This document shows positions 21,463-49,330 of a DNA stretch of 64,000 nucleotides, in pieces. The position numbers were made by a program, and so were the translations under genes. The notes below the pieces were generated by a model, which made no database searches, was not told the DNA's origin, and was given only the letters and a program-made list of their open reading frames with translations. The stretch is from Psammoneis japonica. Lineage: Eukaryota. How positions within the stretch are numbered: the stretch's first letter is position 1; each line of letters begins with the position of its first letter. Location of the stretch: the NCBI GenBank assembly GCA_008632985.1, contig QPGO01000005.1, positions 951,607 through 1,015,606 of the forward strand, given 5' to 3'.

Positions 21463-24400
21463 TTACTGAAATCCTTCTGGGTCTCTTTCGAGAGTCTCGT
21501 CGTCGTCATCCAGTGATGGTGCAGGACCGTACAACGCTTGCCACTCGAGGCGTGATCGAGAAGAACCAATTCCCGCATCATTCTCCACCGGAACATTAAT
21601 GCTGTCCTTGTTTCCACTCTCGGCTGCAACTCGAGTAATTTTCACCAACACCTTTTCATCTTTCTGACCTGGAGCAAGATCAACAACAACTTGATCACCT
21701 TCATTCACAAACTCCTGCATGATGGCTTCCGCCATTGTGTCCTCGAGGTATCGCTGCACCGCACGTCGAATGGGTCGCGCTCCAAACTGCGCCGAGTTGG
21801 CTAGTCCTTCCCGCGTCACCATTTCCACCACATTATCCGCCACCTGGACACGAATATCTTGGTCGTCTGATGCACGATTTGCCGATTCGGTCAGCAAATT
21901 ACTGGCAATGTCTCGCAAATTATCATAGTTGAGGGGAGAAAAGGTTATAATTTCGTCAATGCGGTTGAGCAACTCTGGCTTCATGGCCTTCTCCAGTTCT
22001 TCTTTCACAGCGTCTTCGGTGGTCTGAGGTTTCTCCTTGTCATCAACAACGTCATCGGATTTCCTGGAAAGTTCCAAAATACGTTGGCTACCGACGTTTG
22101 ATGTCATGACGAAGATTGTGTTTTTAAAACTGACTGTGCGCCCCTTGCCGTCCGTCAGTGTACCTTCATCCATGACTTGCAGAAGCAGGTTTAAGACATC
22201 CTCGTGAGCCTTTCAAAAACGATGCACACCAACAAGAAAAAGCGTGTAATGAGCTTAAAATGTACGATGCAATGCAAAAGCAGTATCGATAACTCACCTT
22301 CTCCACCTCGTCGAAAAGAACTACAGAATGAGGAGCTCTTCTAACAGCATCCGTCAACTGCCCACCTTCTTCAAAGCCAACGTATCCAGGAGGACTGCCG
22401 ACTAATCTACTGGTCGAGATGCGGTCCATGTATTCGCTCATGTCAATACGAATGACATCCTTTTCTTGTCCGTAGTAGGTCTCTGCCAATGACTTGCACA
22501 ATTCAGTTTTACCTGAATAACGATCCATGATCAATAGTTGTGAGCTTCGAAAGGATCGTCATCAAAGCGCCAAAAGCAAAACAATCGTACTCACCGACAC
22601 CAGTCGAACCACAGAACAACAGACTCGCAACAGGGCGTTTCCCGTCTCTCATTCCACTCCTCGCTCTCCGTATCGCCTTGGCCACCGAAGTTACCGCTGC
22701 ATCTTGACCCTTGATACGCTTGCCCATGTTAACTTCGAGATTTCGTAGACGTTCTTTTTCACCCGTGTCCAAGCGCCCGACAGGGATGCCAGTCAACTCC
22801 GAAATTACTTCCGTTACTGAATCTTCTGTCACAAAAGGATCTCCGTCAACGTCTTCGTTCATGTTCACCATGGATCCTGCCTCGTCCAGCAGATCAATGG
22901 CCTTGTCCGGTAGGAAGCGGTCATTAATATAACGGTCGCTGAGCTTCGCGGCCGCAACAAGAGCGTTGGAGGTGTACTCAACATCATGATACTCTTCGTA
23001 ACGAGGCACAATTGCACTTAGAATATCCAATGTCTCCTCGACAGTGGGTTCCTTGATCTCTAGCGGCTGAAACCTTCGTTCTAGTGCTCCGTCTTTCTCG
23101 ATATAACGTCGGTACTCTGGTGTTGTGGTTGCGCCCAACACTCGCAACTCCCCTCGTGCCAATGCAGGTTTCAAAAGGTTGGCAGCATTCATGGCCCCAT
23201 CACCACCTCCACCAGTTCCAATAAGGTTATGGATTTCGTCAATAAATAAGATAACATTCGTGTTGGAGGCTTCCTTTATCAACTTTTGGATCTTTTCTTC
23301 AAAGTCACCACGGTTCCGCGTGCCAGCCACCAAACTCGCAAGCTCAACGCTCACCAAGCGGAATCCCATGAGTGCCTTGGGACAGGGAGGTAACGTATAT
23401 TCCCATGCTTCGTCGTCTTCCACTCCTCCGTTGGCTTTATCCATGACCTTTTCGTCTGGCTTGTTGCGCTTGAATGGGTTTTTAATAGTTGGTAGCTTGA
23501 ATTTCTTCTCTTCTTCGATTACCTCTAATCCGCTGGCCAAAACTTGAGCAAGAGCTTCAGCGACAGCTGTCTTTCCTACACCAGGGTCCCCAATCAAGCA
23601 CGGATTGTTTTTGCGTCGCCGTCCAAGAGTCCGAAGAGCCGTTCTGATCTCCTTGTCGCGACCAAAAACGACATCCAGCTGTCCATCCAGGGCCATTTGG
23701 GTGAGATCGACCCCAACCTCGGCCAAAGTATTGCTGACGGGTGCATTTGCTCCACCAATCTTGACTTCTTCCACCACCGCAGTGGGTCCCTCGGGGTTCT
23801 CGATATCTTCGTTTGGTTCCTTCTCCAACGCCTCCACCAAATTCTCACAAAAGTTGTAAATGGGATACTTCCCTCCCTTCTTGTCGAGACCCGTTAGTCC
23901 CTCTGTATTCATCAACACATTATAAGCCGGAGCAGATTCGATTCTTCCTCCAAAGTTGTACCCGCATAGCGCCAGCAAGACGTGTTCCGATCGGATGGAC
24001 TCACTTTCGAAATGCTGTGCGATCTTCATGGCTGCTGTCAAGACTTGCTTCGCTTCTTTGGAAAAGGGTAACGCCTCGACCTTCTTATCGTCACTATCAT
24101 CAGACTCACTCACGATAATTCCTACTCCAGATTCTTTAAGCTGATTAATTGCACTCTCCTTTGCAGCTTCATACGTGATCCCGTACTTTGCCAAAGTGCT
24201 CTGAGCACGTTCAGGCTTTCCTACAATGCCAGCAAACAAAATCTCGTTCTGAAGAAGCGACAAGCCCAGCTGGTTACCGATATTATGTGATGTCATGACG
24301 GCACCAACGCATTCGTCTGACATTTTCTCAATCACCATGGACAAGGACGAGGATGAACGAGCAGCATTCAATCTGTTGCGTCGGGGGGTTGCAGACGTTT

Positions 24401-24560
24401 TGAAGGAAGCTGTGCGACATGTTGCACCTCGAGCCGGTGTCATTCCAGAGCGACTCCAGCATCCTTGTGAAAACGCCGTTACGACATGGTTCGCCGATGG
24501 ATCCAACGCAAACAGCAGCGGCGCCACCAGCAAACAAGCCTTCATCATGGTTGGAGGCAT
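21463..24560 (-). CDS. clpC: ClpC/ClpB-family AAA+ chaperone, nuclear-encoded and plastid-targeted
   Basis: Exons 24560-22595, 22512-22298 and 22209-21463. '[19 protein letters not shown]', 'LFIDEIH', '[14 protein letters not shown]', 'GSTGVGKTEL', 'DMSEYM', 'GARPIRR'. Presequence 'VTAFS'. No long ClpB middle domain. Confidence 0.92.
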
Positions 24561-25156
24561 TCTTGTCTGATTTTCTCTGCAGACTGCAAAATCTTCGTTG
24601 CCGCGAGATGACGTGGGCAGGATCTGCCACGACCGCAGTGCACGTAGATTTCTACGTATTTGAAATATGAAAAGATGACGTCGCAATAGGTGGCGGATTG
24701 AATGAGCTGAGTCTTGCTAAAAGCTTTGTCTCGTGACGGTCAACGAACAAAGAGTACTTACCGTGCCTCTACTCTAGTAGTAGTAGCTAGCTTAGCTCTC
24801 TCATTTCGTATCGTGCGTTCCGAAGATTCGCCTCTCTAGAGTAGTTCATTTGCATTGTCAGGATTGGTTTCAACGATGAAACGTTCTTAGTGAATGAGCA
24901 TCTTGAATTAGAGCAATATCCATAGAAGCCACCTTAGTCCAATACCGGTAGGACCGATGCACTTGAGGAAGCGCTGCGCATCCGCTGTCTCGTGCAGATC
25001 TTCTGCATTCGGGACGCTGCATTGGGGGCGACGAGTTTGACAAGGACCAGGAAGCACCAGGAAGGAACATTGAAGTGAAGCTGAGAGTCCTCTTTCCATT
25101 TTGATGATGCCGCTGTTGATAAATCTCATGTATGATCTGATATACGAAACATCTAC

Positions 25157-26290
25157 TCAAATGCGTCTTTGTTGTTCAACTACAGCTTTGACAGTCTCGA
25201 CTACTGCCTCTTGTAGATTGCCTCCAGCCGCCATATCTTTCAGCTGGTATCCACCCTCCAATCCCAACACAAGTCCAGGGTTGTTGTTCATTTTCTCCAG
25301 TAGCAACCGCGTTGCTTTTCCGTAGTCAGAAGCTGTCAAACTCACACTAGCAAGTTCGTCACTGTCCAGAGCATCATAGCCAGCTGATATAATTACTAGG
25401 TCAGGCTGCCAAGATGCATTAATCAGAAATGGTAGCGCATCATTCTCCAGCGCCTGTTGGTATCCACAAGTCCAAGTAGTGTCAGCTTGAATTGGTATTG
25501 TAAAGATATTCCCATTTGTTACCTCCTTCTTTTCGCCCATGTACGGGAAGGCTGGGATTTGATGTATTGAAGCATACCTAATGCGGTCGTGACCCTTGAA
25601 TATATCAACGATGCCTTGTCCCATGTGCACGTCCCAATCAAGGATAGATACTTTGGTGCTAGGGTCCTGATCCACGGCGTGGAGCGCAGCTGCGGCACAG
25701 AAATTGAACAAACAAAAGCCATTCGATAACCGAGCTGTTGCATGGTGACCTGGTGGTCGGGTAAGAGCCATACTGGCACCGGGCGAGCCATTCTTATATC
25801 CGACAGCGTAATCAACTGCCCGGATCCAGCAAGCAGTGGCCCGGAGACATACATCATATGTTTCAGTCGTCAGATACGTGTCATCGTCAACATAGCCAAC
25901 AAATCCCAATGGATTCTTGCCATCATCAATTCGGCGCTGGCGTGAATCTCGACATCGTCTTTCTAGTTGTGATACATATTCCTCCGAATGGGCTTTTACC
26001 AATTTATCTCGTGCGTACCGCAACTCTTCGGGCCTACAGGGATTGTGCTCATCAGATACATCAATCAAATCAACTACCGAGTTCTCGATACGGTATTCTT
26101 TAAGTGCTGCAATGCATGCATCGATTCGTGCTGGTTGTTCTGGATGGTACTGCAAGCAACGGTGCAAGTGGTTGGAGGAATCGAAGAAGACGGGAAAGTT
26201 GAGAGCGAGAGCGTTGCCGATCTGCAGGAGAGAAAAGAATAGAATCGAAAATTGGTGGCATTCAGTAATTGAACGCTGACGCACTGCCAT
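25157..26290 (-). CDS. Histone deacetylase-family (class II/acetylpolyamine amidohydrolase-like) protein with signal-like N-terminus
   Basis: 'HPEQPARI', 'RPPGHHA', 'GFCLFN', 'LDWDVHMGQG', 'SAGYDAL', 'LEGGY'. Confidence 0.9.
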   Translation of the reverse strand: MAVRQRSITECHQFSILFFSLLQIGNALALNFPVFFDSSNHLHRCLQYHPEQPARIDACIAALKEYRIENSVVDLIDVSDEHNPCRPEELRYARDKLVKAHSEEYVSQLERRCRDSRQRRIDDGKNPLGFVGYVDDDTYLTTETYDVCLRATACWIRAVDYAVGYKNGSPGASMALTRPPGHHATARLSNGFCLFNFCAAAALHAVDQDPSTKVSILDWDVHMGQGIVDIFKGHDRIRYASIHQIPAFPYMGEKKEVTNGNIFTIPIQADTTWTCGYQQALENDALPFLINASWQPDLVIISAGYDALDSDELASVSLTASDYGKATRLLLEKMNNNPGLVLGLEGGYQLKDMAAGGNLQEAVVETVKAVVEQQRRI

Positions 26291-26583
26291 CGCCAATGGA
26301 CACAATAAGCAACCAGGGAGCGCAACTGAGGAAATCGCAGAGGTATGGTAGGGAGAGGTGACGGTGGAATGCTAGGGCCCTCACTCTACTAGTAGTAGAC
26401 TTTGGACATGCATGCCGCCTGGAGATTGCAGATTGCAGCACATCGCACGAAAAAAAGTAATGGCCGCGAGAAGCACATCAACCCACAAAACATACCGTGT
26501 ACTTTGAGAGAAGGTGGTTATTTTATTCTTCTCTCCAGTTTATGTTATTCTAGCTAGACTTGGCTAGCCTCTGATTCCAGCAA

Positions 26584-28386
26584 CTATTCCACTATAAACG
26601 AGGTCCAAGAACCATGAACGCACCAAGGCATTAAGGTCCCAAGGTCTACAGTACACACAGGCCCCGACCCAAACTTTTCTCCATCCCAAACTACCAGATT
26701 GCAAGACTTGCCGCCAGCATCATGCTCGATGCAGGTTACGAAGCAATCTTGCTCTCCTTTTCCGGTAGGGATAATCATTGCCTCGCTGACAACATTTTCA
26801 TTACCTGCATCCCAATTCTCCGTCTTGCCATTTTCGAGATCGACCTTTAAAATCGAGCGAAACGGAAACCAACCTTCGGGTCGTGCGGCTCCACAAAAGT
26901 ACGAGTATCTCGCCTTTGACGCTTCCGGTTGAAACACGGGCATATCTACAGGAATGTCGACGCCATTGTCATTTAATTTATACCGATCTTTCCGGACCAC
27001 CTTTTGTTGCGTTAACGAAATCACGTACTTGTCCAACCGCGGAGCTGGAGCATCTGAGGAAGCGGACCATGAAATTGGATCAAACTTCTGTGTCTCGGTT
27101 TCGAATCCCATCTCTCCTCCAAACGTGTACTGATCAAATGCTGCCCCATGCACAATCAATGTATTGTCGCTATCATCTTGGTAGCATGGACCAAGGTGGA
27201 AAATGTTGAAGAATCTGTCGGACTTGGCATCCACAACGTCTCTGTTTTCAGGATCGCGGGGGATTAAGAGAAACGAACCGGAGGCGCTCTCATCCATTTG
27301 AAAAGACTCTGTACCTCTTCCAAAACCCGCAAGGTACTTGACTGCTCCCTCCATGTCAAAACTTGCTGGATTTTTTGGTACTACGTAGTAGTCTTTTGTG
27401 ATCATCCAATCGTGAAAAACGATAAAGTCAGTCACATGTTCTCGAGATGAGACTAATCTGAAGTTGACGTCAAACTCAAAGAATTCAATGGCGGTATTTC
27501 CACCACCTTGACCTTCTCCGGGTACTTTGAGAGTCGACGCGCAAAATATAATTGTGCCCTTTCCTCCGTCGACCCGACTATGAGCCAGCAATTTTCTTCC
27601 CGCCAACACCCGTTGGATATCGCCCACTCCTTCCATCACTTGATCTAAAGGACCAAGAGTTTCAAGCGTGCTTGGATCTACGATATATGGATGACCCATA
27701 TCACCACCAACAATCAAAACAGGGTCCATTCCGTATTCACTTGTGGGAGGCCACAACGTTGCAGCAACATTTCCCGTGTTGCGCTCCGTTGGCGACAATG
27801 CATTCAAAATTGCTCCGCCCATGTTGAAGGGCGCCACACTACTCATCACACCCTTTGCAAGCATCATGTTAAGGTTCCGTTCCATTCTTGTCAAAGGCGT
27901 CTGAATTATCGCCTTTTTGTGCACAATGCTTCCGTCGCCTCGAAAGGTTAACGATTTGAGAAAGCCCGGCGCCTCAAATGGATGAACGAGGCGGTTTCCA
28001 ACCTTGCAGCTGCCCAAACCATTCATAAAATATGTGCCCTTGACATTTAGAAAGCGCTCGAAAGCACGCTTGTCGTAGACCTTGGAATTGGAACGAATAT
28101 CAATAACCTCTGTACTCTTGTCGGGCACTTCACACGTTGCAATTGTCTCCCACGTCTTTTTCGCAAGTTCTCTGTTTTCTTCCAGAGAAAGTGGGTCGCG
28201 GTTCAACTGTTGAACATCGTTTTCACATTCTTCAATCAGGACCGCTTTAGAAACAATCCCAGAGTGTGTTCTGTCTGCAACGCGGTCGGCAAGCTGCAGT
28301 TTTGTTCTTGTTTCAACAAAAGCCTCTGAAAAAGTGTTCACAATTGAAGTGAGAAGGATCGAAAAGACAACTTGAATTTGCCTCAT
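26584..28386 (-). CDS. Carotenoid oxygenase / RPE65-family dioxygenase
   Basis: Four candidate Fe-ligand His motifs ('LLAHSRVD', 'FHDWMIT', 'IFHLG', 'CVHGSW') plus 'VSEAMIIP'. Presequence 'SEAFV'. Confidence 0.85.
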   Translation of the reverse strand: MRQIQVVFSILLTSIVNTFSEAFVETRTKLQLADRVADRTHSGIVSKAVLIEECENDVQQLNRDPLSLEENRELAKKTWETIATCEVPDKSTEVIDIRSNSKVYDKRAFERFLNVKGTYFMNGLGSCKVGNRLVHPFEAPGFLKSLTFRGDGSIVHKKAIIQTPLTRMERNLNMMLAKGVMSSVAPFNMGGAILNALSPTERNTGNVAATLWPPTSEYGMDPVLIVGGDMGHPYIVDPSTLETLGPLDQVMEGVGDIQRVLAGRKLLAHSRVDGGKGTIIFCASTLKVPGEGQGGGNTAIEFFEFDVNFRLVSSREHVTDFIVFHDWMITKDYYVVPKNPASFDMEGAVKYLAGFGRGTESFQMDESASGSFLLIPRDPENRDVVDAKSDRFFNIFHLGPCYQDDSDNTLIVHGAAFDQYTFGGEMGFETETQKFDPISWSASSDAPAPRLDKYVISLTQQKVVRKDRYKLNDNGVDIPVDMPVFQPEASKARYSYFCGAARPEGWFPFRSILKVDLENGKTENWDAGNENVVSEAMIIPTGKGEQDCFVTCIEHDAGGKSCNLVVWDGEKFGSGPVCTVDLGTLMPWCVHGSWTSFIVE

Positions 28387-28893
28387 GATTACTTGAAACA
28401 GAAAACGGCTTTAGGTTTCACGATAGCGAGTTTTCAAATCACTTGTGCGTCGAACTGTGTATGAATGCAATGACTACACGCTTCAGTCGAATGGGCCCCC
28501 CATCGTTATCAAGTGCCGTGCGTTTCCTCATCGTCGCTTCGCTGCATAAAGACGGGTGTCGGCGTCATCCGATGATGAGTCAGAGATGAAGCGCGATCAA
28601 ACTTCAACACACGACTCACGCACTCATTGTGTTGTGAGTTTGGCTTTCTCAACATATGTGTGGTGTGCATACATGAAAGTGGTGCATTTCCTCTGTCTGT
28701 TGTTCAAGTTGAAGCACGTTGCGCACAGGCGCGGCTTGCGCGCATCATCCCTCTCACAAAAGCCGCCATATGCCCGCACGCCGCACTGCGCCGCGAGCCG
28801 CGATGGCATTATTCATACAAGTAGATACCGCATTGCGACTAAGCGTCACTCATTTACCAACTGTTGTCTAGGGATAGAGACGCACAGTACAGT

Positions 28894-34830: not shown

Positions 34831-35985
34831 ATGTGTTGCCAGGGTTAAGTCTTTGCTCTAGATCATTATCATCTTTTCTTCAAGGCATGTTGGGGCTCTC
34901 ATGCGGTGCCTTTCTGAGTTGTCTTTTCTGATCGTTTCCTGTTGACGTCTACGCAGTACACTATACACTGCTCTCCTTCAAGTCATTGCTTGGACTCTTC
35001 CCCAAACTCTAGCTAGCTAGCTTAGCTGGAGAGAAGGGGTATTAACAAGTAATAATTATGAAAAAGCGTAACAAATTCATTTCAAAACAGAGTTCACGCG
35101 CCCATAGTCTCAAATGAACCTTTTTCCGCTGTGTCAAGTTTCAACTCACCTCTATCTACTTCTCTTGTAGAAAATAGCATTGGTTAAGTTTAAGGTTCTC
35201 GAAATGCAGGTACGTGGTCGCTTCGGAATTCGAAGGTAAGGCCGCGACGTATCCCTCAAGAGAGACAGGCTCATTCCATCCAACTCGTTCGCTCTCCAAC
35301 GAACGATTGACAGGCAATACTTGTAGCTAGAGTGATGACGATAAAGGCAGCTAAGAAAGGTAGCTATTTTTCGGATTCTTTATCAAAATAGACTATTCTC
35401 TAGCTAGCTTTCTCTACTAGTAGGGCCTAGATGGCGAGCTCTCCATTAGACAGCGCGCGAGGGAAAGGCATCCCTTTCCACAATGATGTCTCCCCCTTAA
35501 ATAATCGAAAATGCCACTTTCAACTTACCGTACTGTACAGTACTGAGCTTTTGTACAGTATGTAATTGCGGCCTACCTACCGGGCGGTATGAAACTACTA
35601 GTTCTTGACATCCAGAATCGATCAGGCATAAATAAAAATGTATCGTACAGTGCTGTATGTACGAGGTCACTTCTTCGCACAAGAGGAGTCACTTGAGCAC
35701 AAAAAACAAATCTGTTTACCTTTGTTTACTGGCACTGTAGGCCCTGCTCTCTCTGGTGGAGTGTTTGCGTTTCTCACCTGTTGACACATTGACAGGTGGT
35801 GTGGTGCTTTTTACTGCTGATTTGTTTTTGGTGGTGGGCACCGGAGATCCCGGTGAGGCTTGTTTGTCTCGATGTCTCTCCAAGTGCAGTCGGGACAGCC
35901 TCACACCAGCTTTCTCGTGTGACTTCACTTTTTTGCTTTGTCATTCTTCAGTGGGTCATCTTCAACCGATCCATGCTCTTCAAGG

Positions 35986-38006
35986 ATGCGCGTTCTCGGT
36001 CCCCTTTGGGGGTTGTGTGCTTTGTTCTGTCTCGGCAACGAAGTCAAGCCTGTTGTGCCGACCTGTGATTGCCCCGCATTGCCAACCGTGAACTTGACAG
36101 CGAATTTTGTGTTTGTCGTTTTCGCAAAAGACCAGCTGGTGCAGGATGATCTTGATGATTTTGGCACTCTCTTCAACAAGACGCATGTGGAATTCTTGGA
36201 AAGCAAAAATTGTTTGGAAGATCTTCGCAAGATCAATGCAGTCGTGGTTGAGTTTGACAGCATTGTTCCTGTCAGCGTCGCTGAGGGCAACTGCAATCTT
36301 CAGTGTAGCTTGCTTGTCGAGGTTACAGGGACGTGTCGGACGTCAGGCAAATGCACAAGTTTCTTTGCGAAGAAGAGAATGGGCAAAGGGAAAGGGAAAT
36401 CGAAAGGCAGGAGAAAGAAGCACAAGACCAATGGACCTGGACGCTCACACGGACGTGGGCCCAGAGGTGACTCAAGCGGTGATGCCAAAGGTTTGTTTGC
36501 CATCAGCGAGCCCGGAAGCCAATTCAGGCAAAACACCACACAAAATTGTGAAAAATGCAAAAAACTTGGAAGAGACAAGTTTCTTGATTTGTTCAGCGAA
36601 AAGGTTGCCACGGAATCCGCTGGTGACCCGACAAAGAAAATGTGCTCTTCTAAGTCAGGGAAGGAGTTTGTGTCAAGGCCCATCGACGAGTGTGATCCGA
36701 ATGACTTTGTCGCTTCTAACGCTAGATTTGGGTTTTCCTTTGCAGCGACTTGCGATGAAACCAACCCTGTTTTTCTACAGAAGTTGACTGCCGAGTTGCG
36801 GAGCATTGGATTTGAATCGGTTCCTAGAATCAATCGACCATTTCCGAAAAATGCGACCCTGAGTTCCCAATCATCAAAACTCTTGAGCTGGATTCTGCAG
36901 TTGTTGAGGCCTGTGGCTTCTCTGAAGTGCGACGACCAAGACGATTTTTTGGCCAATGTTCGGGTGGCGCAAGGAAATCGAGATCCAGAAAGCTCAATGA
37001 CAGGCGTCTTCTTGCTTTGGATGATGATCACAGCGCATTCAACAGGGAACTCAGTCATGGCATTGGCGTGGGACTCCCTCCATGCGCGTGCAGCGCCGAC
37101 ACCACACTTGCCCATGTCACTTCCAAAGATTTGAAACAGGCGTTTAATTCGCAAATCGAAATCCTGCGCAAATCTGGAAGTGTTGAATGTGTCAGAAACG
37201 GATTTGATTCTGCTGAGCGCGAGGATGACAATGACCCTGACTGTGACCCAGGAGAAGCATTGCCAAAGGCAGGTGCCAATTGTGGGGAAGGCAACCAGTT
37301 TGCCCTTGAAGTCAACTGCAACAATGGTGAAGCGTTTGAGTGTGACGAGTGTGCCACCGATGTTGCCCCCGTTTTCCGAGAAGGCTTTGTGCCAGAAGAA
37401 GGTGCAACGGGTTTCTCTCATCAGAGATGTGTCTCGGAGTTTTCCTGTTTCTCCTTGATCGTCAATGATCCATTTCCTCCGGGCAGTGCACTTTCCGTGA
37501 CATTGGACGGCGCACCCGAGTTGTCCGTTGGACCTGCAGTTGTCAGCTCTGGTGGATTTGACCTGAATTTTGGATTCTGCAATGCTCCCGACAAATGCGG
37601 TGAGTGCGACGAAGGCAACGGAGGACCGCAATGTTTGTCGCCATTTTGTTGTGACAGCGTAGAAGATGGCAGGTGTGATTTCTGCGGTGATTGCCTTCAA
37701 GGCTCGTGCAGAGGTCTTTGCAGCTTTTGTGCTGCTTGCGGCGAGGCTCCTCTGGATCCTCCCATTCAATGCGGCCCAAACTGTGGAGCTGAGACTGAGG
37801 GCGTGCCAGCATGCGGAACAGATGGTTGCGCTGAATGCGAAGAGATTTCTGAAGCTTGTCCTCCACCAAGCTGCCCTGACGCATGTGGCGAGCGTGCAGA
37901 TTCACTTGCAGTCACTCTCTGTGCAGTCCAAGTGAACGCGAATCTTGTGAGGACGTCTGCCAAATGGACGGGGACTCGTGTTTGCTCGTGTGGGAAAGAG
38001 GGATGA
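35986..38006 (+). pseudogene. Secreted Cys-rich protein gene, TpA-depleted and frameshifted (~36820): block B
   Basis: Signal peptide 'MRVLGPLWGLCALFCLG'. Two overlapping ORFs (398 and 359 aa) contain no Tyr at all. The second frame picks up at 'STISEKCDPEFPIIK'. 36001-36300 has 0 TpA but 13 CpG. Confidence 0.7.
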
Positions 38007-38562
38007 AGCCGTTGCTTGACAGCTGAAGCTGCAGAACTGCAGAAATGCGCGTTGGATGAGCAAGGGCATTTCATGACTTTTCAACACAGTGATTGACATC
38101 CAGTCACAACAACTCAGTGGTGGCAGAAGTCAGGTTTTTGATTTGTTTTGTTGGAACGCTGTTCTCTCTAGGAAAGCACTTGTGATGGTCATTTGTCTCT
38201 CTCTCTCTCTCTCTTGCTAGCTAGAAAGGATCTGGCACCCATCAGGATCTCCTTGCAGATTCTACTTTGAAGCAACTCAAATGTCACCGTGTCTCGAAGC
38301 TGTTTGAAAAGTTCCCGTCTGGGACACACGGCATTTTGTCGCATTTGGCGACATTTTCTTAAATGAATTGATGATTTGTCGCGAAAAGACGCGAATTGCG
38401 ACAAAATGTCCGGGTTGGCGATAAACGGGACAGAAACATTGTTTAATTAAGTTATGAAATGATTAATGTCATTTATAACCAACCTGAACTTTGGCGATGT
38501 CGTTTCAATAAGTGGGGTAATTAACAGAATTTGGCGATCGATGTCATCGACGAAAATTCATC

Positions 38563-38757
38563 CGACAAAATTTGTCGTATACGACAAAATTTGTCGGACA
38601 TCCGACAAATTTGTCGGATGTCCGACAAAATTTGTCGCATACGACAAGACACGACACGACACGACACGACACGACAAGACACGACACGACACGACAAGAC
38701 ACGACACGACACGACAAGACACGACACGACACGACACGACACGTCACGACACGACGA
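38563..38757 (+). repeat. Four CGACAAA(A)TTTGTCG palindromes followed by a (CGACA/AGACA)n microsatellite
   Basis: Palindromes start at 38563, 38582, 38603 and 38623. Pentamer run 38642-38757. Confidence 0.95.
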
Positions 38758-39031
38758 CTCACGAACGAAACACCCACGCCCCCCGCACACGCTAACCGCT
38801 AACGTCTCCGTTGACACTACCGGTATGTCTCTTTTGCGCGATGATGCAAAGCGACGATCATGCCGCTCTCGGCGGTCTCCATACTCTCGTCAATACCGGG
38901 ACAACAACACTTCTACATAGTGCAACGGAATGTACCGGTATGTATTGCTGTACTGTACCTTTTATCAGTACGACTGGGCACTTCTGAATGTTGGGGAGCG
39001 TTGCGTTATCGGTATGTCGCAAACGTCCGTC

Positions 39032-39216
39032 TGTCGGCGTTTGTCGGCTCTTGTCGGCTCTTGTCGGCGTTTGTCGTACGTTGTCGGGGTTTGTCGGGGC
39101 TTGTCGGGGTTTGTCGGGGTTTGTCGGGGTTTGTCGGATACGACAAAATTTGTCGTACGTCCGACAAAATTTGTCGTACATCCGACAAAATTTGTCGTAT
39201 CCGACAAAATTTGTCG
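39032..39216 (+). repeat. 10-mer TTGTCG-containing tandem repeats followed by four CGACAAAATTTGTCG palindromes
   Basis: 'ttgtcggggt'-type units 39032-39137. Palindromes start at 39141, 39162, 39183 and 39202. Confidence 0.95.
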
Positions 39217-39605
39217 TACGTACGACAAAATCGCCAAAACATTAATTAATAAGTACAGTCTTCGCCGAAAGTTAAATTCATCATATAGCACTGTAGTTGA
39301 TATAACGTGTGTGTTTAGGACACGCCATCGCCAATTAAATGATGATTTTGTCTTATTTTTCGCCAACGGTTGAAATTTGTCTCAAAGGGCGTTTTTCACG
39401 ACAAATCGTCCAATTCATTTATGGGAATGTCGCAATTGGCGACAAAATGCCGTGTGTCCCTGCTGAGAATCGCGCACGGCGGCATTTTCAATTTAGACCG
39501 CGAAACATCAGGGGCGAAGACAGACCATTCGTTTCACTCTTTGTATTGTGTGACGGACGCGCGTCATCATCCGGCATTTTTGCGACGAGCGTTCACAGAA
39601 CGATG

Positions 39606-39812
39606 ATGCCACAGTCAACAACCAAAGTCCCGTCGGCGTTGATTGCACCACCAACATTGCTTGCAACCAATGCAGCACTGCTGCACAATGGGATGATCAG
39701 CTCATGACAAAAAGCACCACAGAAAACAGAAAATCGAAAAAGAGCTCGAGAAAACAAAAATCACAAGGGATTGACGAACGCCACAAGGACAGCGACAACC
39801 ACAAAAAGTCTC
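39606..39812 (+). pseudogene. Mutated duplicate of the upstream region and first ~40 codons of the gene at 60904
   Basis: 39688 'atgggatgatcagctcatgacaaaaagc…aaaagtctc' aligns by eye with 60904 'atgggacgatcagctcatgacgaaaagc…aaaagtctc'. Confidence 0.88.
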
Positions 39813-39814
39813 AA

Positions 39815-40652
39815 GTTGCTGCTCTGCCGCCAGTCATGTGTGCATGTTGTCTGGTTGCACTGTCTTGCATTGGTGCAAGATGCAACAAGTGACCATGGCC
39901 AGTGTGGCTGAGGCAGAGTTTTTCGCAGCTGGTGCTGCTGGAGAGCAAGTGCTCCTGCGCCTTTGCCGCATTGTCAAGGAGCTGGGATTCGCCCAAGTCA
40001 GACTGACTCCCGTGTTTGTTGTCAAGAACAAACTGACCATCAGGGTCACCAACAACTGTGCCCCCACTGAGCGATCCTGTCACATCATTGAGCGATCTTG
40101 CCACATCACCACCCAGTGGTTTGTTGCCCAAAACCAGAGAGAGACAGGCCATGTTGTCGCTGGACACATCCCTGGCATCACCAGCACAAGCAATGCCTGT
40201 GCCCAGGCTCTTGAAACAATGCTGCACACCCACCATGCTCATTGCATGATGGGGCACTGCCTTTGACATTTTGCCACTGAGTCTGATGGCATCTGCTGAA
40301 CGCAGCCCTTTTGCATTGTGTGGTTTCTTTCTGGTTGACTGGAGCCTTCCCCGCAGCCATTTGTTGTGACCATTGTGATCTTCATTGTCCAGTTTGGGCA
40401 CGTTGGGTGAGGGGGGTGTCAGCTGGCAAATGGCGTGGCACTTGGCCAGATTGCATGCACTGGACAAGGTCACAGGCACTTTTGGATGGCAGAGCAGATC
40501 TCAGGTCAAGATCTTCTCCTCACTCTTTCTCGCTGGCATGCATGTTGTCCCTGTTGCTGGTTTGCAGGGAGGCTCTGCATGCTTGTTGCTCTTGCTGTCA
40601 CTGCTCCATCAGTTGCACATGTTTCTTGTGAGCAGCCAGTGGCTGGTTGACA
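39815..40652 (+). mobile_element. Decayed Ty1/copia 3' end: RNase H, polypurine tract and probable 3' LTR
   Basis: 'CMLSGCTVLHWCKMQQVTMASVAEAEFFAAG' and 'RSCHITTQWFVAQ'. PPT GGGTGAGGGGGG (40405-40416), then TG at 40417. The LTR resembles those at 50512-50701 and 60243-60516. Right end tentative. Confidence 0.75.
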
Positions 40653-42369
40653 GAAATTGAAGATGACTGGGTGGAAGAAAACAATGGCTCCTTGCTCCTG
40701 CTGTCTAAACAGCAGATGAGCCTCCATGCAGAGACTGTCACAGGAGCCAAAAGACTGGTGTCATGATGTTGGTGCTGCTGTCATTGTTCTTCTTGTGAAC
40801 CAAGTGGCTCAAAAGCAAGCTGCACTGCACATTGTGCATGGAACTGAGAACACACACAATTGTGTGAGACAAGCCAAAATCTTGTTTAAATCCTGTCACT
40901 CCCCAGTTTGCTTTGGGAGTCTACAGCAACAGATTCTTCAAGGTCAGATTGGACAAAGGCTTGGGATTAAAGTTCCAGAACATCAGAGGGCAGAGGAGGC
41001 TCCAGATCTGGGATCAGCCCCTGTGCTTGCTGAGAATGTCAGTCAGTTTGCGGGAACCTTTGCATGGTGGATGGAGAGGGTGGTGTGTTGCTTGTGTGAC
41101 TTGGAGCGAGGGATGGCAGCACTGTCCACAACTGGCTTGTTGTCCCCAAACATGTGACACATGTCATGAGTTGGGACACCAAGGCAACACAAAGTGATGG
41201 GAAGACCAATGATCTGTTCAACACATGTCCTTGCAGCAACAACCAGAGATCATCCACACATTTCAGTCTCAACTGTTGCTTGTTTCTTGGAGAGCCAATT
41301 GGCCAGAAACTTGTTGAGGAAATGGATGACACCCATGACAGAGCATCCAGTGAGCACTCAATGGAGCAAGTTTGTGTCAACATGGTGGGTCGTGGTGACA
41401 AACTTGCCAAGTGGCTCAGGCATGTCTTGCGAGAGGAACTCTTCTGCCTCCCCACACACAGAGTGAGCCCAGTCGTGCACTGGCTCAGGCAGGTCCAAAC
41501 AGTTGGGTTCCTTGGTGCACACTCGGAGGGCACCATGTTGCATCTTGGACAGGTGTCTGCAGACATGTTTGGCACAATCTAGAAGGCCTTGATGGGGTGC
41601 TGCATGCAAGCTAGACAGGGACATGACTTCCACAGCAATGTCAGTGTGCGACGGAGCAATGCAGCCCTTTGCAGGGAACCAACCAAGGACTGGAGTTCAT
41701 GGATGCCATCGGGTTTGAGCAATTTGGAGGTGTCAAGCTCAGGGTGGACTCCTTTTTCAAGAGGGGAAAGCATGCCAGAGTGAGGCTTTTCTCCAAAGAG
41801 ACATGCACAGTTGTCAACCATGCGCTCAATGCACTTGCAAGGAGCAAGGCACAGGGAGCATCGGAGTCATGAGTGAAGTTTCAACCAAGGTGGAACTCCA
41901 ATGATCTAGCACCCTTGAGCTTGAACTTGCATTTCTCTGTGAGGGTGTTTGCAAAAGCTTGAGGGTCCTTCAAGGTGAAAGCCAGGTTGTCCACATGTGT
42001 TGCCATGTGTTCACATTGGTTGCTCATCAGAGCACACAACATGGTGATCATCACACATCTTTTCATTGTGATTTTCATTCCTTTTGTGGACAATTTTTTT
42101 GTGGTTTCAAACCTCGTTGGTTGTGCAGCTGGCAATGACATGTCAATTGTGACAGATTGACATTTTCATGCTGTGGGATCAGACCCCCCCTCCCCATGAG
42201 GAAAATTGTTTCGCTGTGAAACAGGGGCACGTTTTCACCATGAGAGTGCCCACCCTCTGTCCTTGCAAAACCTGCAAATTAAAATCATTTGCGTTGCACC
42301 ATGAACGTTCCATTTTGTTGTTTGCATTCAAACTAAATGACGCCAACAGAGACAACACCCTAGAGTCTG

Positions 42370-42840
42370 CAGCAGTTGCAGCTCACTTTCTTCAAGTGCC
42401 GCTGCTGGCAACCACCTTGTTCATTGCCAAAAAAGTGCAGAATGTGTTGTGAGAGTGCAGCGTGGATGAGCCAACACCACCAACAGGAGTGGCAACATGG
42501 GCTTGCCGGCACATCCAGTGCCGCTGATTCTGGAACAGGTGAGTTTGCAGCAGGAGCTGCTGCTCCATTGTTTGAAGTGCCGCTGCTCTGTTCTGCCTCA
42601 TTCATTGCCAAAAAGAGCAAAACACATTGTGAGAGTGTTGCATGGATGAACCAACACAACCCATGGGAACGGCAACATGGGTGTGCCAGTGCACCCGACA
42701 CCACTGATTCTGGAGCAGGCAAGTTTGCAGCAGAAGTGCTGTTGCTCCTCTGGCACTGATCCACCTTGTTCATTGCTGAAAAGCACAGAGCACATTGTGA
42801 GAGCATGATGCAGATGAACTGGCATGAACCACAGCACACA
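42370..42840 (+). repeat. Three degenerate ~170-180 bp tandem repeats
   Basis: 'ttcattgc…ttgtgagag…gatga' recurs at ~42420, ~42601 and ~42769. Confidence 0.8.
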
Positions 42841-42979
42841 CTCACCGGTGCATTGGTGCATCTGGCGCAGCTGATTCAGGAGCAACGTAGATGCCGGTGT
42901 GCAGTGTGAGATGTGGAGCCCCCAGCTCCACCCCTGCAACTCAAAGAAAACACAGAAAGAAAGCATGTGAGCAAGCAAA

Positions 42980-43400
42980 AAACCTCCTGTGCTGCGGACG
43001 GTGCACTGATGACATGTTTGGAGCACAGACCAGAAACAGCAGAGAGACTTGGGAAGCCTTTAAAAATGAGCCCAACAGTTCAGGCAACCTTCGATGGGTT
43101 GCCTCCCCACTCTCCACCTCTGCAGTCTTTCTGGATCCGGACACAGAAATTGGAGAAGATGGGTGCAACGCAAGTGAACACATCAAAAACAAACGAAGCT
43201 CTTTTTGTGCATGCCTTTTTTGAAGAGTGCCAATTGTGGTGTTGCAATGAACTTTTCATGTGTGTGATTCTGAGAGCTGCAGGAACAAGCACCGCCTGCA
43301 GTCTTTCTGGATCTGGGTGCAGAAATTGGAGAAGATGGATGTGTTGTTGGCAAATGCATCAAAAACCAATGAACCTCTTTTTGCACACACCTTGTTTGAA
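42980..43400 (+). mobile_element. Penelope-like reverse transcriptase fragment (decayed, internally duplicated)
   Basis: 'LLCCGRCTDDMFG…TWEAFK…GNLRW…SAVFLD' and 'HQKPMNLFLHTP' match YY.RY.DD…V.FLD…YQKPMNL.LY.P after reversing Y->C/H. Confidence 0.65.
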
Positions 43401-46400
43401 CAGTGTAATTTGTGGCAACTTGTGATGATTCTGGACGCAAAACTCTGACATGCACGATTGCACCAATGCTGCAGAAAAGCAAGTTTGTGACGTGTGTGCA
43501 CACAACACACAACAACACACCAGCAGCTCAGCATTCTGGATGTGGCAGATTCATGACAGCACACTCGCGATCACAAAATTCAAGCTGTGCCTGAATGAAG
43601 CCCCGCCTTGACCAACCAGAAGGACAGCAGGTTTTGCCATGCATGGAGCTGCTGTCATCAGCCAATGGGGCAAAGTCTGTGTCACCACCATGGCCAGTTG
43701 TTGATTTGCAGATTTGCAACCACACGCAGGTTCCACGTGAATCACAACAGCACACGCTCTTGTTTTTCAAACTTTGGGGAGAGGGTGTGCTGTTGTGAAG
43801 TGTGCAGAAAATTGCGCATGCAAAACACATGCTGAAAATGCCGTAGACCAACGTGCTGCACAAATCTGGGAAACATGAAGAAAAATGAAGGTGGGTCACG
43901 TGCGTGTGTGAAGTGCTGCAGACTGCACACTGCAAAGACACACACACAAGTGAGGAGGACAAAGTTAAAACCAAGTTCAAATTGATCACGATCAAAAGGA
44001 AACCAAACCATGCATCACAAAAAACAGATTTTGATCTCAATTGAATTAAACATTGCGTGCATTTGATTGAAGCTTGTGCAAGAAAAGTCAATGAGACATC
44101 AGATGAAATGCAAAAAACAGCTTCATTTTGTTGAGCACTTTTGCTGGCATTTTTTTAAATTCTGCTTGTTGACAATTTTTTGACAATGCACATTAAAAGT
44201 TTTGCAAAACAAAGTGGAAACCACTGCATTGCTGCCTCTGATGCTGTTCTGATGCAACCCGATGTCGAGTTCAGCACAACACAGGAAGAAACCTCTGGCG
44301 TGCAAACAATTGGCAAAGCATTCATGCCACCTGAGGCCAGAGCTGCAGAGTCCATGTAGAGCCTTGTGGATGACAAGGATGTGTCCTTCCAGCTCACCAA
44401 ATTTGGGGCCTGCTGGTGCAATGTGCAGTTTCTCTTTGGCTGCAGCTTTGAGACAGGTGTTGCCAATGTCGGTTGCCCATGTCTCTCCAGTTCATTGAGT
44501 TCAGCCAGGAAGATCATCAGCCAAAGACCACAGAGGGGCACCACTTCAGAGCAGACACTGTCAATGGGCAGCACATCTGTGAGGCATCTGTTGTTGACAA
44601 GTTGTGCCTGGCCTTGTGCCTGCTGTCATGCTTGATGTCATGGATGAGGTGGACCCTGATCCTCTTGTGTCTTGCTGGGGCACCGCTGGAGTCCTTGCAG
44701 TGGTGTTCACAATTGTGAAACACCTTGCACTCACCAAGCTGAGTCATCTCAAGGTCTGTTGCAGCTCCCCACTCATGGTTGCCATTGTGTGCTTGTCGAG
44801 GGCCTGTGTGTGCTTGCAGTCCCAGGGCACTTCACAGCCATGCTTGCATCATGGTGCGCAGTGTGAAACAAGCACAGCTTGGTTTGGTTGGCCATGTGGA
44901 ACAGCTTCTTCTGGTGCAGAGCTGTGGTTTGGTGGAAGCATTTCCATCCATTGGTTTCAAGTGAGCCATGCTCACATGCGCAGATGGCACAGGTGATGGC
45001 ATTGTCTTTGGCAATGATGGCAAGAGGTTCAGATGTGATCTCCCCATCTTCCCATTCAAGCCACAACGGGCAGCACCAATGTCATGTCACCAGTCTTTCA
45101 GCTCCTGCAATGGGGTCTTTGCACAGAGACTCACCCACCAATTGGACAGCAGCAAGGAGTCATTGTTTTCTTCCACCCAGTGTGGCTGTGACAAACAAAA
45201 ATGTTGTTCAAATTGTGTTGCTGGTTGAATTGTGCACTTGGGTCATGTTGGCATTGAGGCTGTGGCTTGTGGGTCTGAGCTTGTTGCTGCAACAACAGCA
45301 CCAAGACTTGTGCAAAACAGATTGTTGACTCTCATGATGGCGGGCCTGTTTTGCACTGCATCAGTGTCCTGATCCACAGCACCAGCCACACATTCAGTGA
45401 GACAGCAAGTCAGTCATGGGCACCATGCTGCTGCTCTGCACTTCAAAGAGCCACACAAGCAAAATGCAACCCTCTCATTTCACCACATCCATGAGGCAAC
45501 AATTGCTTCAGGTTTTGTGCCCAGTTTGTGGGCTGCACTCTCTGGAAATGCTGAGACAGTGGTGTCTCAAAGTTTGATGATGAATGTGGAGCAACCCAGA
45601 AAAATTTGATTGAAAGACAGAAGCAGAAATGACAACACAAAATGTCAACAACACCTCAAAGCTTAACAGAAAGTTCTGACTGGGCAGTGGATTGACCCAT
45701 GCACTGTCATGGCTGTTGGTTGTGTGTGTTGGTCTCTCTCAACATTTCACATGTGCTGTCTGTCTGTCCCCACTGCTGGCTTAAAAAGTCTGCCTGCAGG
45801 CCCATTTGTGGCATGCCAGCTCATGTTTCATGCAAGAGAAAGACATGTGAAGTCTGTCCAAGTGACACAGCCAGATTGCGCTCCTTGCCATTTGCCGCTG
45901 CACTTGCCACACCATGCACGTGCATGTCGCCAATGACGCCAACAAAAATTTCATGACATGCTGGGGCAGCAGTTGCTTTTGTGTGGATCCGGGTTCTTGT
46001 CAGCTGTGCTCATGCTTGTTTGAGCTGACTCAGCAAACAGCCCCTCTCAGCGCAGTGGACCAGCTTGCCATTTGCTTCTCACAGTGCTGCTTGGCTTCCA
46101 GAAATCAACACAAACCCACAATCATCCCCTGCACACAGGACACAGGTGTCAAAGCAGCACAAGAACAATGAGTGATGGTGTGTGTTTGAGCACCGCCTGT
46201 GTGCCAGCTGTGCATCATCATGTGCTCAATGGCGGTGCGCCACAGCAGTGCCAGCAGGGAGTCAACCCATTGCCCCTTCTTGGCCACACATCGCTGCCAC
46301 TTGCTCCTCGCAAAATGTGATCTGGCTCCCTGATGTGGACAAACTTGTTGCAGCCAAGCAGATGTGCAGAGGCAAGCTTTTTGCCACTGCTTTGTTCTCT

Positions 46401-47778
46401 TTTGCATTTCATTTTTCAGCTCCTGGTTGCTTTGATCACATCCTCCATTTTGTTGCAAGCCTGCCAGTGGCAGCAGCTGCTTTCCAACAACATGCTTTCA
46501 CTTGCCAAAGATTGCAGCACTTGCAAGGCTGTTGCGTCCAATCACAAGAACCCACAGAATCTGCAGCACAAATGGTTTGCCTGGTGCATGCAGATTGTGG
46601 TGGCACTGCAAAGAGACGTGTGTGGTTTGCAGGCATGAAGCCCACGTCCCCTCCCAGCCAGAACAAGAATGCCAAGCAGGAAGAGGTCTGTGAAACGCAA
46701 AACAACAACAGCGCCAAAGTGCTCTCTTCTCTTTGCAAGACGTGCAAAGGAGATCTGGACCATGGAGACAATGTGTCAGTGAAGAGGGTCATTCCTGCGT
46801 GGACAGCAGATGACTTCCAGGTTGTGAGCCTTGACATCGCTTGGCACAAGAAGGCAGCCATCTGCAGAATTGTGAAACATCAAAAAATCTCTTCAGCACA
46901 TTGTTGTCTTGATGCCAGCAGTGAGTGCTTGTGGCACACCCACCTCTGTTCTGTTGATGCCATTGATGCACAAATCATTGTTTGCTTTGTTGCTTTCATT
47001 GGTGTTGTCTGCCGACGTTGACCGCACTCTCACAATGTCGACCATGAGAGGTGGGCGTGGCCAGAGAATGTCCAGGAGCTCAAGAGTGTGTTGCTTGCTG
47101 CCCACAGCAACCAGGTGGAGCATGGCTTGTGACATGGGAGGTGGCAACAAGACCCTGAAGTGCTGGACTGAGAAAATGTTGTGTCAACGCACACCCATGG
47201 TGCATTTCCGTGTTGGCCACCTGTTGCTTTGGGTGAGAAGAAGAAGCCACGGTCATTGTGCAAAGCCAGCGGCCAACATGATGAGCACTCTGCTTCTTGT
47301 GCATGCATTCTCCACAGCATGCTCTGCCACTAAAATGACCCCCTCACAAGCTGCACTCTCTTTTTTCCTCCCCGCAAAAAGGGGGTCGACACAAGCAAAG
47401 GAGCCTTGCCACCGAGGTGTGATGAGATCGGAACAGAAAAGAGAGGAAATGAAATGCGAGACATGACAATGGCGCGCTCTCGAGAAGAAGGAACCTGAAT
47501 CCGACTGTCAGATTAAAATGACCACAGTTTGATCGAACAACACACGAAAAAGAACAACCATTGCGAGTTGAGAATTCGCCAAGGCGAGCGGAATTTCATT
47601 TTGTGACGTGGGCGCTTCAACTAAAAAAATCGAAGCAAAAATGTACTAGAGTACAAATTCTACGTACCGGTAGTACACATATCATAACGTACAAGATTCC
47701 TTCGACCAGCTTTTTTCAGTGACACGCTTGTTCTTTTCGACATGATGTCCATGCTGTACTGTACGCGACCGACCAACC

Positions 47779-48279: not shown

Positions 48280-49079
48280 TTGGTAATAGCATCAACGCTG
48301 CAGGAAGGGAACGGAAAGTTAAATAACATCATACACGAAAACAAAACCAGAAAGCTCCTCGGACTCCTCGAGACTATGTCGTGATTTCATCTGTCAGCAG
48401 AGGGCACATATAAGAAGCAGTCGGTTAAGAGCTGCACGTGTGCAGCGATACATTGAAAATATTAGAAAGGTCCAGATTGTAAATGGTACATCAAATTGAG
48501 AAGTTGCCTCTTGCAGGGTGACAGTTGCAGACAATCTAGCCACCAACATTCACAACTTACGCGTCACCACATAGCATACAGGAGGACAATTCGCGATATA
48601 CTGTAGAGCACAAAACATGCTCCAACTCAAGCATGCATCGTCTCGCTTATACTGGCATCCTTCATTGCTGGGCATCCTCAGGCTTGTTTAACCACACGAG
48701 TACTGTAGGACCATCCCGTCTAGCAAAAAAGAATCTCGGATTGCCAAGAATCTCCCAAGCTCACATCTGATGAATGCACGAGGCACCAAAGAATTCCGTG
48801 TGTTCTGTCTCCAACAAAGCTTTTTATGCAACACTGTCATGCAAGCAGTCTTCCTTCTTTAATTTTCTCAATTGAAAAATTTGCATGGACTGGCACCATT
48901 GGTGTGTTCCCTCCCATTGTTTTCAAATGTTGTTGGTGTCGTCTTTTGCCAATAAAATGCAAAATCATCATTGTCGACTGTGCCAGTCCTGTCTCCTGTC
49001 TCACCAAGCTCCTGAGCTCAGCTCCAAAAAGTTGTTTTGAAATTTTGGAAGCTGAGGCACACTCTTTGTCTCACCCATT

Positions 49080-49330
49080 GCAAAACACAACAATTGAGCA
49101 AAATTTCTTTCCCTGTGCAGATGTCATGGGTTGCCACCAAATCCATCCAAAGCCCAGGTGGCCACACTTCATGAGCTCATCTTAGTTTCTCATGATGGGT
49201 GGGAATCTTGAGCACCAGCATGACTTGACACTGCTGACATTCATGGTCAATGCAATTGATGACACTGGTGCAGTGCATCATGGGAGAAAAGAGGAGCACA
49301 AAACTGTCAGTGTGGTGAGCTGAAAGATTT
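49080..49330 (-). pseudogene. Decayed SET-domain gene fragment
   Basis: 'HTDSFVLLFSP…SVINCIDH' (NYINH-like) and 'GLWMDLVATHDICTGKEILLNC' (ATRDI..GEEI..NY-like). Confidence 0.5.

Follow-up and report, generated by a model that had tools for sequence, protein, structure and literature searches.

How does a gene of some 670 codons come to be almost free of the dinucleotide TpA while it keeps most of its CpG and a reading frame that is very nearly open from end to end? The question is raised by a locus at positions 35700-38320 of a 64,000-nt stretch of DNA from Psammoneis japonica (assembly GCA_008632985.1, contig QPGO01000005.1, positions 951,607 to 1,015,606 of the forward strand), which we call the window and whose numbering we use throughout. 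Across the locus TpA occurs 17 times, at an observed/expected ratio (o/e) of 0.10, and CpG 119 times, at an o/e of 0.74; TpG and CpA stand at o/e 1.42 and 1.36, respectively, and AA, AT and TT are undepleted, so that among these dinucleotides the loss is limited to TpA. We conclude, with a probability of roughly 0.7, that the locus carries the footprint of TpA-directed hypermutation on a lineage-specific secreted-protein gene, probably one that has been silenced and is starting to decay.

The affected domain was drawn from the positions of the TpA dinucleotides themselves and runs from 35739 to 38168, a span of about 2.4 kb. Its expected counts were taken from 11201-35738, a part of the window with normal composition. 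The domain holds 10 TpA in 2430 nt where 94 were expected (Poisson P = 2.7e-28), and 116 CpG where 136 were expected (P = 0.046), which is about 15% under the local norm. In other words, some 11% of the TpA is left as against some 85% of the CpG, which bears out the claim of an earlier, sequence-only reading of the window that TpA loss is uncoupled here from CpG loss; the count given in that reading for 36001-36300, zero TpA and 13 CpG, was exact in our recount. With a CpG o/e of 0.74-0.93, the gene does not display the strong CpG depletion that marks methylation-driven decay. No other open reading frame (ORF) of the window approaches its state, TpA per nucleotide being 0.004 in the gene and 0.026-0.048 in the others.

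The domain is made up of 247 nt on the 5' side of the start codon, the coding sequence, and about 142-162 nt on the 3' side; that is, it has the size of a transcription unit. Its 5' boundary is sharp, because the adjoining flank (35300-35738), TpA-dense and unaffected, holds 39 TpA in 439 nt (0.089 per nt). On the 3' side it is followed by a spacer of near-normal TpA density (38169-38311, 4 TpA in 143 nt), which separates it from a transposon. No long terminal repeat (LTR), terminal inverted repeat (TIR) or target-site duplication was found at the domain edges.

The gene is read on the forward strand. Two ORFs, of 403 aa (35923-37134) and 392 aa (36828-38006) when measured from stop to stop, are both free of tyrosine; they had previously been given as 398 and 359 aa, so that the absence of tyrosine stands and the lengths do not. 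From the ATG at 35986 a coding path of 286 + 386 = 672 codons continues without a stop, in agreement with the gene of about 670 codons proposed in the sequence-only reading, and the other two forward frames contain 16-32 TGA over the same path. Part A of this path (35986-36845, from the ATG to a frameshift site) has no Tyr, 4.9% Cys and a codon-usage score of 0.10, and by eye its N-terminus is signal-peptide-like, with one Arg followed by about 14 hydrophobic or small residues. Part B (36846-38006, in the frame of the window copy) ends in an acidic Cys-rich tail and has no Tyr, 9.6% Cys and a score of 0.118. Scores are positive in these two coding frames only (0.10 and 0.12, with a host range of 0.07-0.30) and negative in the other frames, and the G+C content at third codon positions (GC3) is 0.45-0.52, as in the host. 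The baseline for codon usage and composition, here and below, consists of 10 host ORFs of the same window. The peptides FNKTHVEF, SVECVRN and FSHQRC, singled out earlier as suggestive sites, were all found in the ORF translations.

By codon phase, TpA occurs at positions 1-2, 2-3 and 3-1 of the 672 codons 0, 2 and 7 times, as compared with host means of about 2.4%, 3.75% and 4.3%, and the non-coding flank within the domain has a single TpA in 409 nt. Because TpA is gone from all codon phases and from the non-coding flanks, protein composition is not the explanation, and a DNA-level (dinucleotide) effect is supported. What was lost as TpA is matched by what was gained: TpG and CpA together amount to 0.178 per nt in the gene versus 0.131-0.160 in the 10 host ORFs, a gain of 0.033 that is close to the TpA loss of 0.035. 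At codon boundaries, codons following a T-ending codon start with G in a fraction of 0.56 (host ORFs 0.31-0.46) and with A in a fraction of 0.033 (host 0.087-0.188; binomial P = 2e-5), and after codons not ending in T the G-start share in the gene is 30%. The boundary footprint corresponds to approximately 27 changes of T/A to T/G, which alter the protein, and about 12 of T/A to C/A, which are synonymous (the slash marks the boundary). On the sense strand, A accounts for 0.238 of the gene, lower than in all 10 host ORFs, and G for 0.281, at the top of the host values, which suggests a sense-strand A-to-G bias.

Another check on the nature of the process is the context of the TpA that survive. 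We considered the survivors of all depleted regions (2600-11199, 35739-38168, 39470-47450 and 48900-60700; n = 101), of which the second is the gene domain and the others are transposon relics described below. Survivors are enriched in the context YTAR (Y, pyrimidine; R, purine), with TTAA 5.3-fold, CTAA 3.5-fold and CTAG 2.2-fold, and survivors in RTAY are absent or nearly so (ATAT 0, GTAC 0, ATAC 0.12). In the relic cores 97-98% of TAY and 81-88% of TAR were lost; in the gene the losses are 91-100% and 78-85%, and none of its 10 surviving TpA lies in an RTAY context. This common rule, by which TAY is lost more than TAR, supports the conclusion that the same process hit the gene and the relics, and the mutational target looks like 5'-T-A-Y-3'. 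Alternatively, TpA may have been re-created in a context-dependent manner, with no T-A-Y preference in the loss itself.

The relics form three blocks (approximately 2600-11200, 39470-47450 and 48900-60700, about 27 kb), in which the TpA o/e is about 0.03, the CpG o/e about 0.2 and the TpG/CpA o/e about 1.9. From their faint protein remnants we read these doubly depleted blocks as old copia-like relics. Of the 143 ORFs in these blocks with a length of 90 aa or more, 4 gave weak Pfam matches, two of them copia-type: an RVT_2 match (E = 0.003) at 44126-44491 on the minus strand, and a retroviral-polymerase SH3 domain (E = 6e-6), both under the Pfam cut-offs. The copia-type reverse transcriptase (RT) and integrase-SH3 remnants lie on the minus strand at 44126-44491 and 52810-53373. 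Protein fragments from the relics lack Tyr and are rich in His and Cys; in the RT/integrase fragments His stands where copia proteins presumably have conserved Tyr, an unconfirmed correspondence that we treat as a lead at most, PDB searches having given no useful match.

In the relic cores TpG plus CpA reaches 0.223-0.237 per nt, compared with the 0.223 predicted from the normal level plus the lost TpA and CpG, and the YpR total is unchanged, as transitions at TpA and CpG would predict. About 8% of the TpA and 24% of the CpG remain there, versus about 11% and 85% in the gene. The block at 39470-47450, where TpA and CpG are both lost, has a left edge (39600-39999) that is TpA-free with CpG still present. 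Together with 2600-2999 and 10600-11199, this makes three relic edges that are TpA-free with near-normal or intermediate CpG, the uncoupled state of the gene on a smaller scale. These observations are compatible with a faster TpA process; if both processes started together, TpA loss would be some 10 times faster than CpG loss, with a floor near 5-10%. Alternatively, heavy methylation may never have reached the gene. The TpA process may also be mechanistically separate from CpG decay, as the sequence-only reading proposed.

We compared the window copy of the gene with contigs from X1, an independent DNA run and, of the three DNA samples X1, X2 and X3, the only one with contigs that match the locus. 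The X1 contigs are identical to the window over 35300-36467 and differ from it over 36469-38346 by six transitions and two one-base insertions. One extra base in X1 at the frameshift of the window copy (36845-36846, forward strand) puts parts A and B in one frame, and at the second indel difference (37903-37904, forward strand) X1 has a substitution and one extra base that alter the C-terminal frame. The X1 form is a single intact ORF of 680 codons with no Tyr, 53 Cys and 8 His, and its stop lies at 38024-38026. The earlier description of a near-intact frame with one shift at about 36820 was thus correct that a shift exists, but the site is 36845/36846 and there is a second indel at 37903. Both frameshifts seen in the window copy may mark a real broken allele or be errors of assembly. 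Five of the six substitutions are exchanges between CpG and TpG or CpA, although such sites account for only 27% of bases in this region (P = 0.007), and none of the six falls at a TpA; of the five that can be scored, being outside the indel, four are nonsynonymous. This excess of CpG transitions between alleles favours CpG decay in progress in the gene.

The gene is intron-less and present in single copy: its contig depth in X1 is 69 versus 62 in the flank, and self-BLAST agrees. X1 also contains extra low-depth contigs (about 9 versus 62-69) that match 35876-35983 and 37238-37309 and are dissimilar beyond that point; they may derive from pieces of related sequence located elsewhere in the sample. 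Directly 5' of the domain, 35300-35660 is the TpA-densest part of the window, with 37 TpA in 360 nt and recurrent GTAC-containing motifs, and it could be the promoter. A CTCT(A/T)GCTAGCTAG-like motif occurs three times (35007-35020, 35398-35411 and 38211-38224) and flanks the gene on both sides; the right-hand copy comes after a (CT)n run, just past the 3' end of the TpA-free domain.

The course of events that we propose is as follows. The locus would be a gene confined to its lineage, present once and free of introns, in a diatom-like stramenopile; its product, about 680 aa long, would begin like a signal peptide and end in an acidic tail rich in Cys. Within a domain the size of a transcription unit, hypermutation at the DNA level would have turned approximately 90% of TpA into TpG (mainly on the sense strand) and CpA, and the same process would have purged the adjacent copia relics. 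The most likely chemistry is adenine deamination in 5'-T-A-3', preferentially in 5'-T-A-Y-3', copied as G at replication; targeting would most likely be by chromatin or small RNA onto a defined unit, and not by spreading. Nonsynonymous changes appear to have been accepted, with all Tyr codons gone and first-position A replaced by G after T-ending codons, and for this reason it is probable that the gene, now in decay, had been silenced or was struck in bursts. The ORF could survive because changes of TpA to TpG or CpA cannot create stop codons, and the open frame says little about function. As for the stage of decay, CpG loss would have just begun (about 15%), and one allele would carry two frameshifts. 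That the locus was recently hit, as had been suggested, is plausible.

Several observations weigh against this interpretation. The sense-strand A-to-G measure is confounded by Cys codons. NTG does not appear in place of the lost NTA, the share of GTG being 0.30 versus 0.29 and that of TTG plus CTG 0.48 versus 0.51, and it is NTT and NTC that are up. Histidine is at 1.0% versus 2.4% and methionine at 0.4% versus 2.6%, so that changes of Tyr to His and Ile to Met are invisible; the low His and the missing NTG gain argue against the simple version of Tyr-to-Cys/His conversion. The Cys excess, about 36 codons, is greater than the expected Tyr loss of about 16, and much of the gene's Cys is thus native. 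The gene favours pyrimidine-ending codons overall, which accounts for part of the rarity of NTA. The host baseline comprises 10 ORFs from one window, and the differences between X1 and the window could partly be assembly errors. None of the search routes described below returned a homologue, hence no ancestral TpA is demonstrable. Finally, in the alga Bigelowiella natans, where a comparable process has been reported, the hit region is transcriptionally silent, which disfavours a transcription-coupled version (Mettrop et al., bioRxiv 10.64898/2026.01.13.699255).

Of the competing explanations, the one that survives best is that the locus is foreign DNA, a viral or transposon-borne cargo gene hypermutated as non-self, as in B. 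natans; we consider this unlikely, though worth serious attention. The gene is indeed an orphan. Pfam matched none of the three ORFs of the gene locus. A word-based protein search with both parts against 5.8 billion clusters confirmed no match among 3090 and 1557 candidates, and HMMER with part B against 1.84 billion representatives gave two matches, both to multi-repeat proteins (through 14 and 9 short stretches) and judged spurious. The best ESM Atlas score was 0.79, under the usable level, with nothing usable for part B. Pattern matches in metagenome contigs (62 and 85) and in viral contigs (3 and 3) yielded no confirmed case; the best match to PDB sequences had an E-value of 0.27, a comparison of part A with part B for an internal repeat gave E = 0.96 at best, and Rfam had no match across the window. 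Single-sequence AlphaFold2 models were of low confidence, with predicted local distance difference test (pLDDT) values of 39.0 and 33.4. On these results the label "host-type gene" given in the sequence-only reading is not supported; it is plausible and unproven. A foreign origin would also suit a gene that adjoins copia relics and a miniature inverted-repeat transposable element (MITE), as well as the enrichment of TpA-depleted clusters in B. natans for unannotated and foreign genes (bioRxiv 10.64898/2026.01.13.699255). Against it speak the host-like codon usage and GC3, the lack of any confirmed viral-contig match, the absence of an LTR, TIR or target-site duplication around the domain, and the acidic Cys-rich tail, which recalls the acidic cysteine-rich (ACR) motifs of diatom frustulins (PMC4712521).

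A second possibility keeps the footprint and changes the chemistry: 5-hydroxymethyluracil, produced at TpA by an enzyme of the TET/JBP type, might mispair with G and give T-to-C changes, or RNA might have undergone A-to-I editing and been copied back to DNA. We regard this as improbable. In favour of the oxidised-thymine route, the two dinucleotides lost in the relics, TpA and CpG, are the two self-complementary YpR steps, as would suit a family of enzymes acting on 5-methylpyrimidines. The RNA route would account for the sense-strand A-to-G excess and for a transcript-sized domain, but the gene has no retrocopy poly(A) tract or target-site duplication, on which grounds a retrocopy origin was rejected, and the relics gain both TpG and CpA. 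The editing enzyme ADAR is, to our knowledge, known only from animals, and it prefers 5' U and 3' G neighbours, whereas the preferred 3' neighbour here is a pyrimidine.

It is still harder to believe that the gene is functional and that its TpA-free, Tyr-free state is native or selected, through UpA avoidance, high expression or a low-complexity composition, with no hypermutation at all. Such a gene would be expected to have an ORF that is intact, as it is in the X1 contigs, and a domain about the size of a transcript, and its protein is poor in Y, H, M, W, I and Q, with pyrimidine-ending codons preferred and no NTG gain. However, TpA is gone from the 409 nt of non-coding flank as well; the replacement of A by G after T-ending codons alters the amino acid and cannot be put down to codon choice; the survivor context rule is identical to that of dead transposons; and the other ORFs of the window have ordinary TpA densities.

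Loss of TpA also removes the stop codons TAA and TAG, and we therefore measured ORF length in 1000 dinucleotide-preserving shuffles of the domain, recording the longest ORF in any frame. Its mean was 197 aa, the 95th percentile 284 and the maximum 471, compared with observed ORFs of 533 (minus strand), 403 and 392 aa. The 403- and 392-aa ORFs each exceed the 95th percentile, and the maximum is passed by the 533-aa ORF alone; the observed sizes were jointly reached in none of the 1000 shuffles, and the loss of TAA and TAG is unlikely to be the sole source of the long ORFs. The 533-aa antisense ORF (36300-37901, minus strand) has negative codon-usage scores and no Pfam match, and we judge it a by-product. 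It is open because over part B it lies in the sense codon register, where its sole possible stops are sense TTA, CTA and TCA, and TTA and CTA went with TpA; the extra base of X1 at 36845 would break it. That there is no gene, and that the ORFs are open merely because TAA and TAG vanished, is hardly credible: long ORFs on both strands, the lack of homologues and the low pLDDT would fit, but 672 codons free of stops beside 16-32 TGA in the other forward frames, shuffles that reach 471 aa at most, positive host codon usage in the forward frames alone and a signal-peptide-like N-terminus do not, and codon register accounts for the antisense ORF. There is a practical warning in this: in genomes subject to TpA hypermutation, long open frames on both strands are no evidence of function.

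Between the gene and the neighbouring relic block lies a high-copy non-autonomous DNA transposon, the MITE (38312-39469, 1.16 kb), with 59-nt TIRs that are 81% complementary. Its TpA and CpG densities are 0.045 and 0.097 per nt and its CpG o/e is 1.8-2.0, so that it is untouched by TpA or CpG loss, and its contig depth in X1 is 3600-8200, or 50-130 times that of the gene. Internally it carries arrays whose units are ACGAC or 20-nt palindromes. Because this transposon stands unaffected between the gene and the relic block, either repeats are not targeted as such or it arrived late. Simple spreading from the relic block to the gene is weakened as an explanation by the 143-nt TpA-normal spacer.

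The window as a whole has 48% G+C and long, intron-poor ORFs of ordinary cell proteins, including an Ariadne-type RBR ligase (18067-21339, forward strand), a ClpB-like AAA protein (22509-24716, minus), a histone deacetylase (25157-26371, minus) and an RPE65-type carotenoid oxygenase (26584-28410, minus). Among relatives of the oxygenase, environmental proteins come closest, at 49% identity, and the named ones are mostly from diatoms, at 41-46%; on this basis we treat the lineage as a diatom-like stramenopile. Within the coding region of the ligase, 19269-19608 holds a 93-nt tandem repeat in three copies with 95% matches. In the first relic block, 8200-9700 consists of C/A-rich tandem repeats of 62% G+C, among them a 33-nt unit (9018-9182) and others that are longer and have diverged, and has long open frames on both strands.

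Three states are thus adjacent in one window: both TpA and CpG lost (the relics), TpA alone lost (the gene and the three relic edges), and neither lost (the transposon). This arrangement makes testable how the process is targeted, how fast it runs compared with methylation decay, in what order it acts relative to methylation, and whether host genes are remodelled or killed with their ORFs open. A broader proposal is possible, though we hold it only tentatively: a defence by TpA-directed adenine editing of DNA, with the motif T-A-Y, may exist in the diatom lineage too, acting on defined transcript-sized units, independent of and faster than CpG-methylation decay, sparing some high-copy transposons, and sometimes rewriting a host gene from end to end while its frame always stays open. 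If this is true, TpA-directed editing would be old and widespread among eukaryotes, and its typical rewrites (Tyr to Cys, Asn to Asp, Lys to Glu) would be a source of abrupt change in secreted proteins that are Cys-rich and acidic. The process may in this way diversify genes.

Among known systems, fungal repeat-induced point mutation (RIP) changes C to T at CpA, creates TpA, needs duplicated DNA and can leak into adjacent single-copy genes. The process described here resembles it in being specific for a dinucleotide, in producing transitions and in its likeness to a genome defence: transposons are scrubbed, and a single-copy gene close by can be altered too. RIP was nevertheless rejected as the cause, because TpA is destroyed here and not created and the gene is single copy, and the spacer of normal TpA density speaks against simple leakage. 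CpG decay, the deamination of 5-methylcytosine in methylated transposons that yields TpG and CpA, is present in the three relic blocks and has possibly begun in the gene, as the CpG transitions between its two forms indicate. On its own it was rejected, since it cannot remove TpA and the gene has kept about 85% of its CpG while losing about 89% of its TpA.

With the deaminases TadA/ADAT2-3 and ADAR, the process shares an A-to-G outcome and a 5' U/T neighbour; in tRNA, TadA/ADAT natively act at U33-A34. Hyper-editing of double-stranded RNA by an ADAR-type enzyme is a poor match: the 5' T fits, but TAY is lost more heavily than TAR, and the host is an alga. As to the protein, frustulins are diatom cell-wall proteins with ACR domains, recognised by at least three of five features, namely a pre-sequence and ACR, Pro-rich, poly-Gly and Trp-rich domains (PMC4712521). 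The gene product is like them in its signal-peptide-like start and its acidic Cys-rich tail, where the hexapeptides CGECDE and VPACGT resemble two ACR motifs (PMC4712521). It differs in having no Trp-rich domain (2 Trp, 0.3%), no polyglycine and one ACR-like stretch alone; neither the word-based search with both parts nor HMMER with part B gave a link to frustulins. Of the five features, a pre-sequence-like start and one ACR-like tail were recognised by eye, and membership in the family seems doubtful.

The literature that we found contains one report of TpA-specific hypermutation, a 2026 preprint on a rhizarian alga, and the same signature appears here near saturation in an unrelated, diatom-like genome. 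In B. natans, integrated viral DNA undergoes localised hypermutation of TpA to TpG/CpA (Mettrop et al., bioRxiv 10.64898/2026.01.13.699255). Two integrated viral regions acquired 231 mutations in mutation-accumulation lines, and 230 of them were A to G or T to C; every one of these fell at TpA, and the rate, about 6e-7 per site and generation, is orders of magnitude above that of the genome. TpA depletion marks 324 predicted genes and 124 genomic clusters, mostly unannotated or transposon-like, and the agent proposed is an ADAT2-like deaminase, with TadA/ADAT2-3 and ADAR as candidates (bioRxiv 10.64898/2026.01.13.699255). The likenesses are close: TpA is the sole dinucleotide lost in the gene, CpA and TpG rise in step, the region is discrete and sharply bounded, transposon-type sequences and an unannotated gene are hit, and ORFs stay open. 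B. natans is a chlorarachniophyte, a rhizarian, whereas the lineage here is a diatom-like stramenopile; mutations were measured there, whereas the signature here is known from composition alone; and the DNA hit here comprises copia relics and an orphan gene present in one copy, in place of giant-virus and virophage inserts. Depletion has also gone much further, with a Rho of about 0.03-0.1 as compared with 0.45 in the nucleocytoplasmic large DNA virus region of B. natans. It occurs both with and without CpG decay and shows a 3'-pyrimidine preference, two features that the main text of the preprint does not mention, although its supplements may hold a flanking-base preference. The process of TpA-specific hypermutation is therefore not itself new, having been measured directly in B. 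natans; what this locus adds is another lineage, a deeper depletion, the juxtaposition of regions that show CpG decay and regions that do not, the 3'-pyrimidine preference, and a well-delimited single-copy gene as a target.

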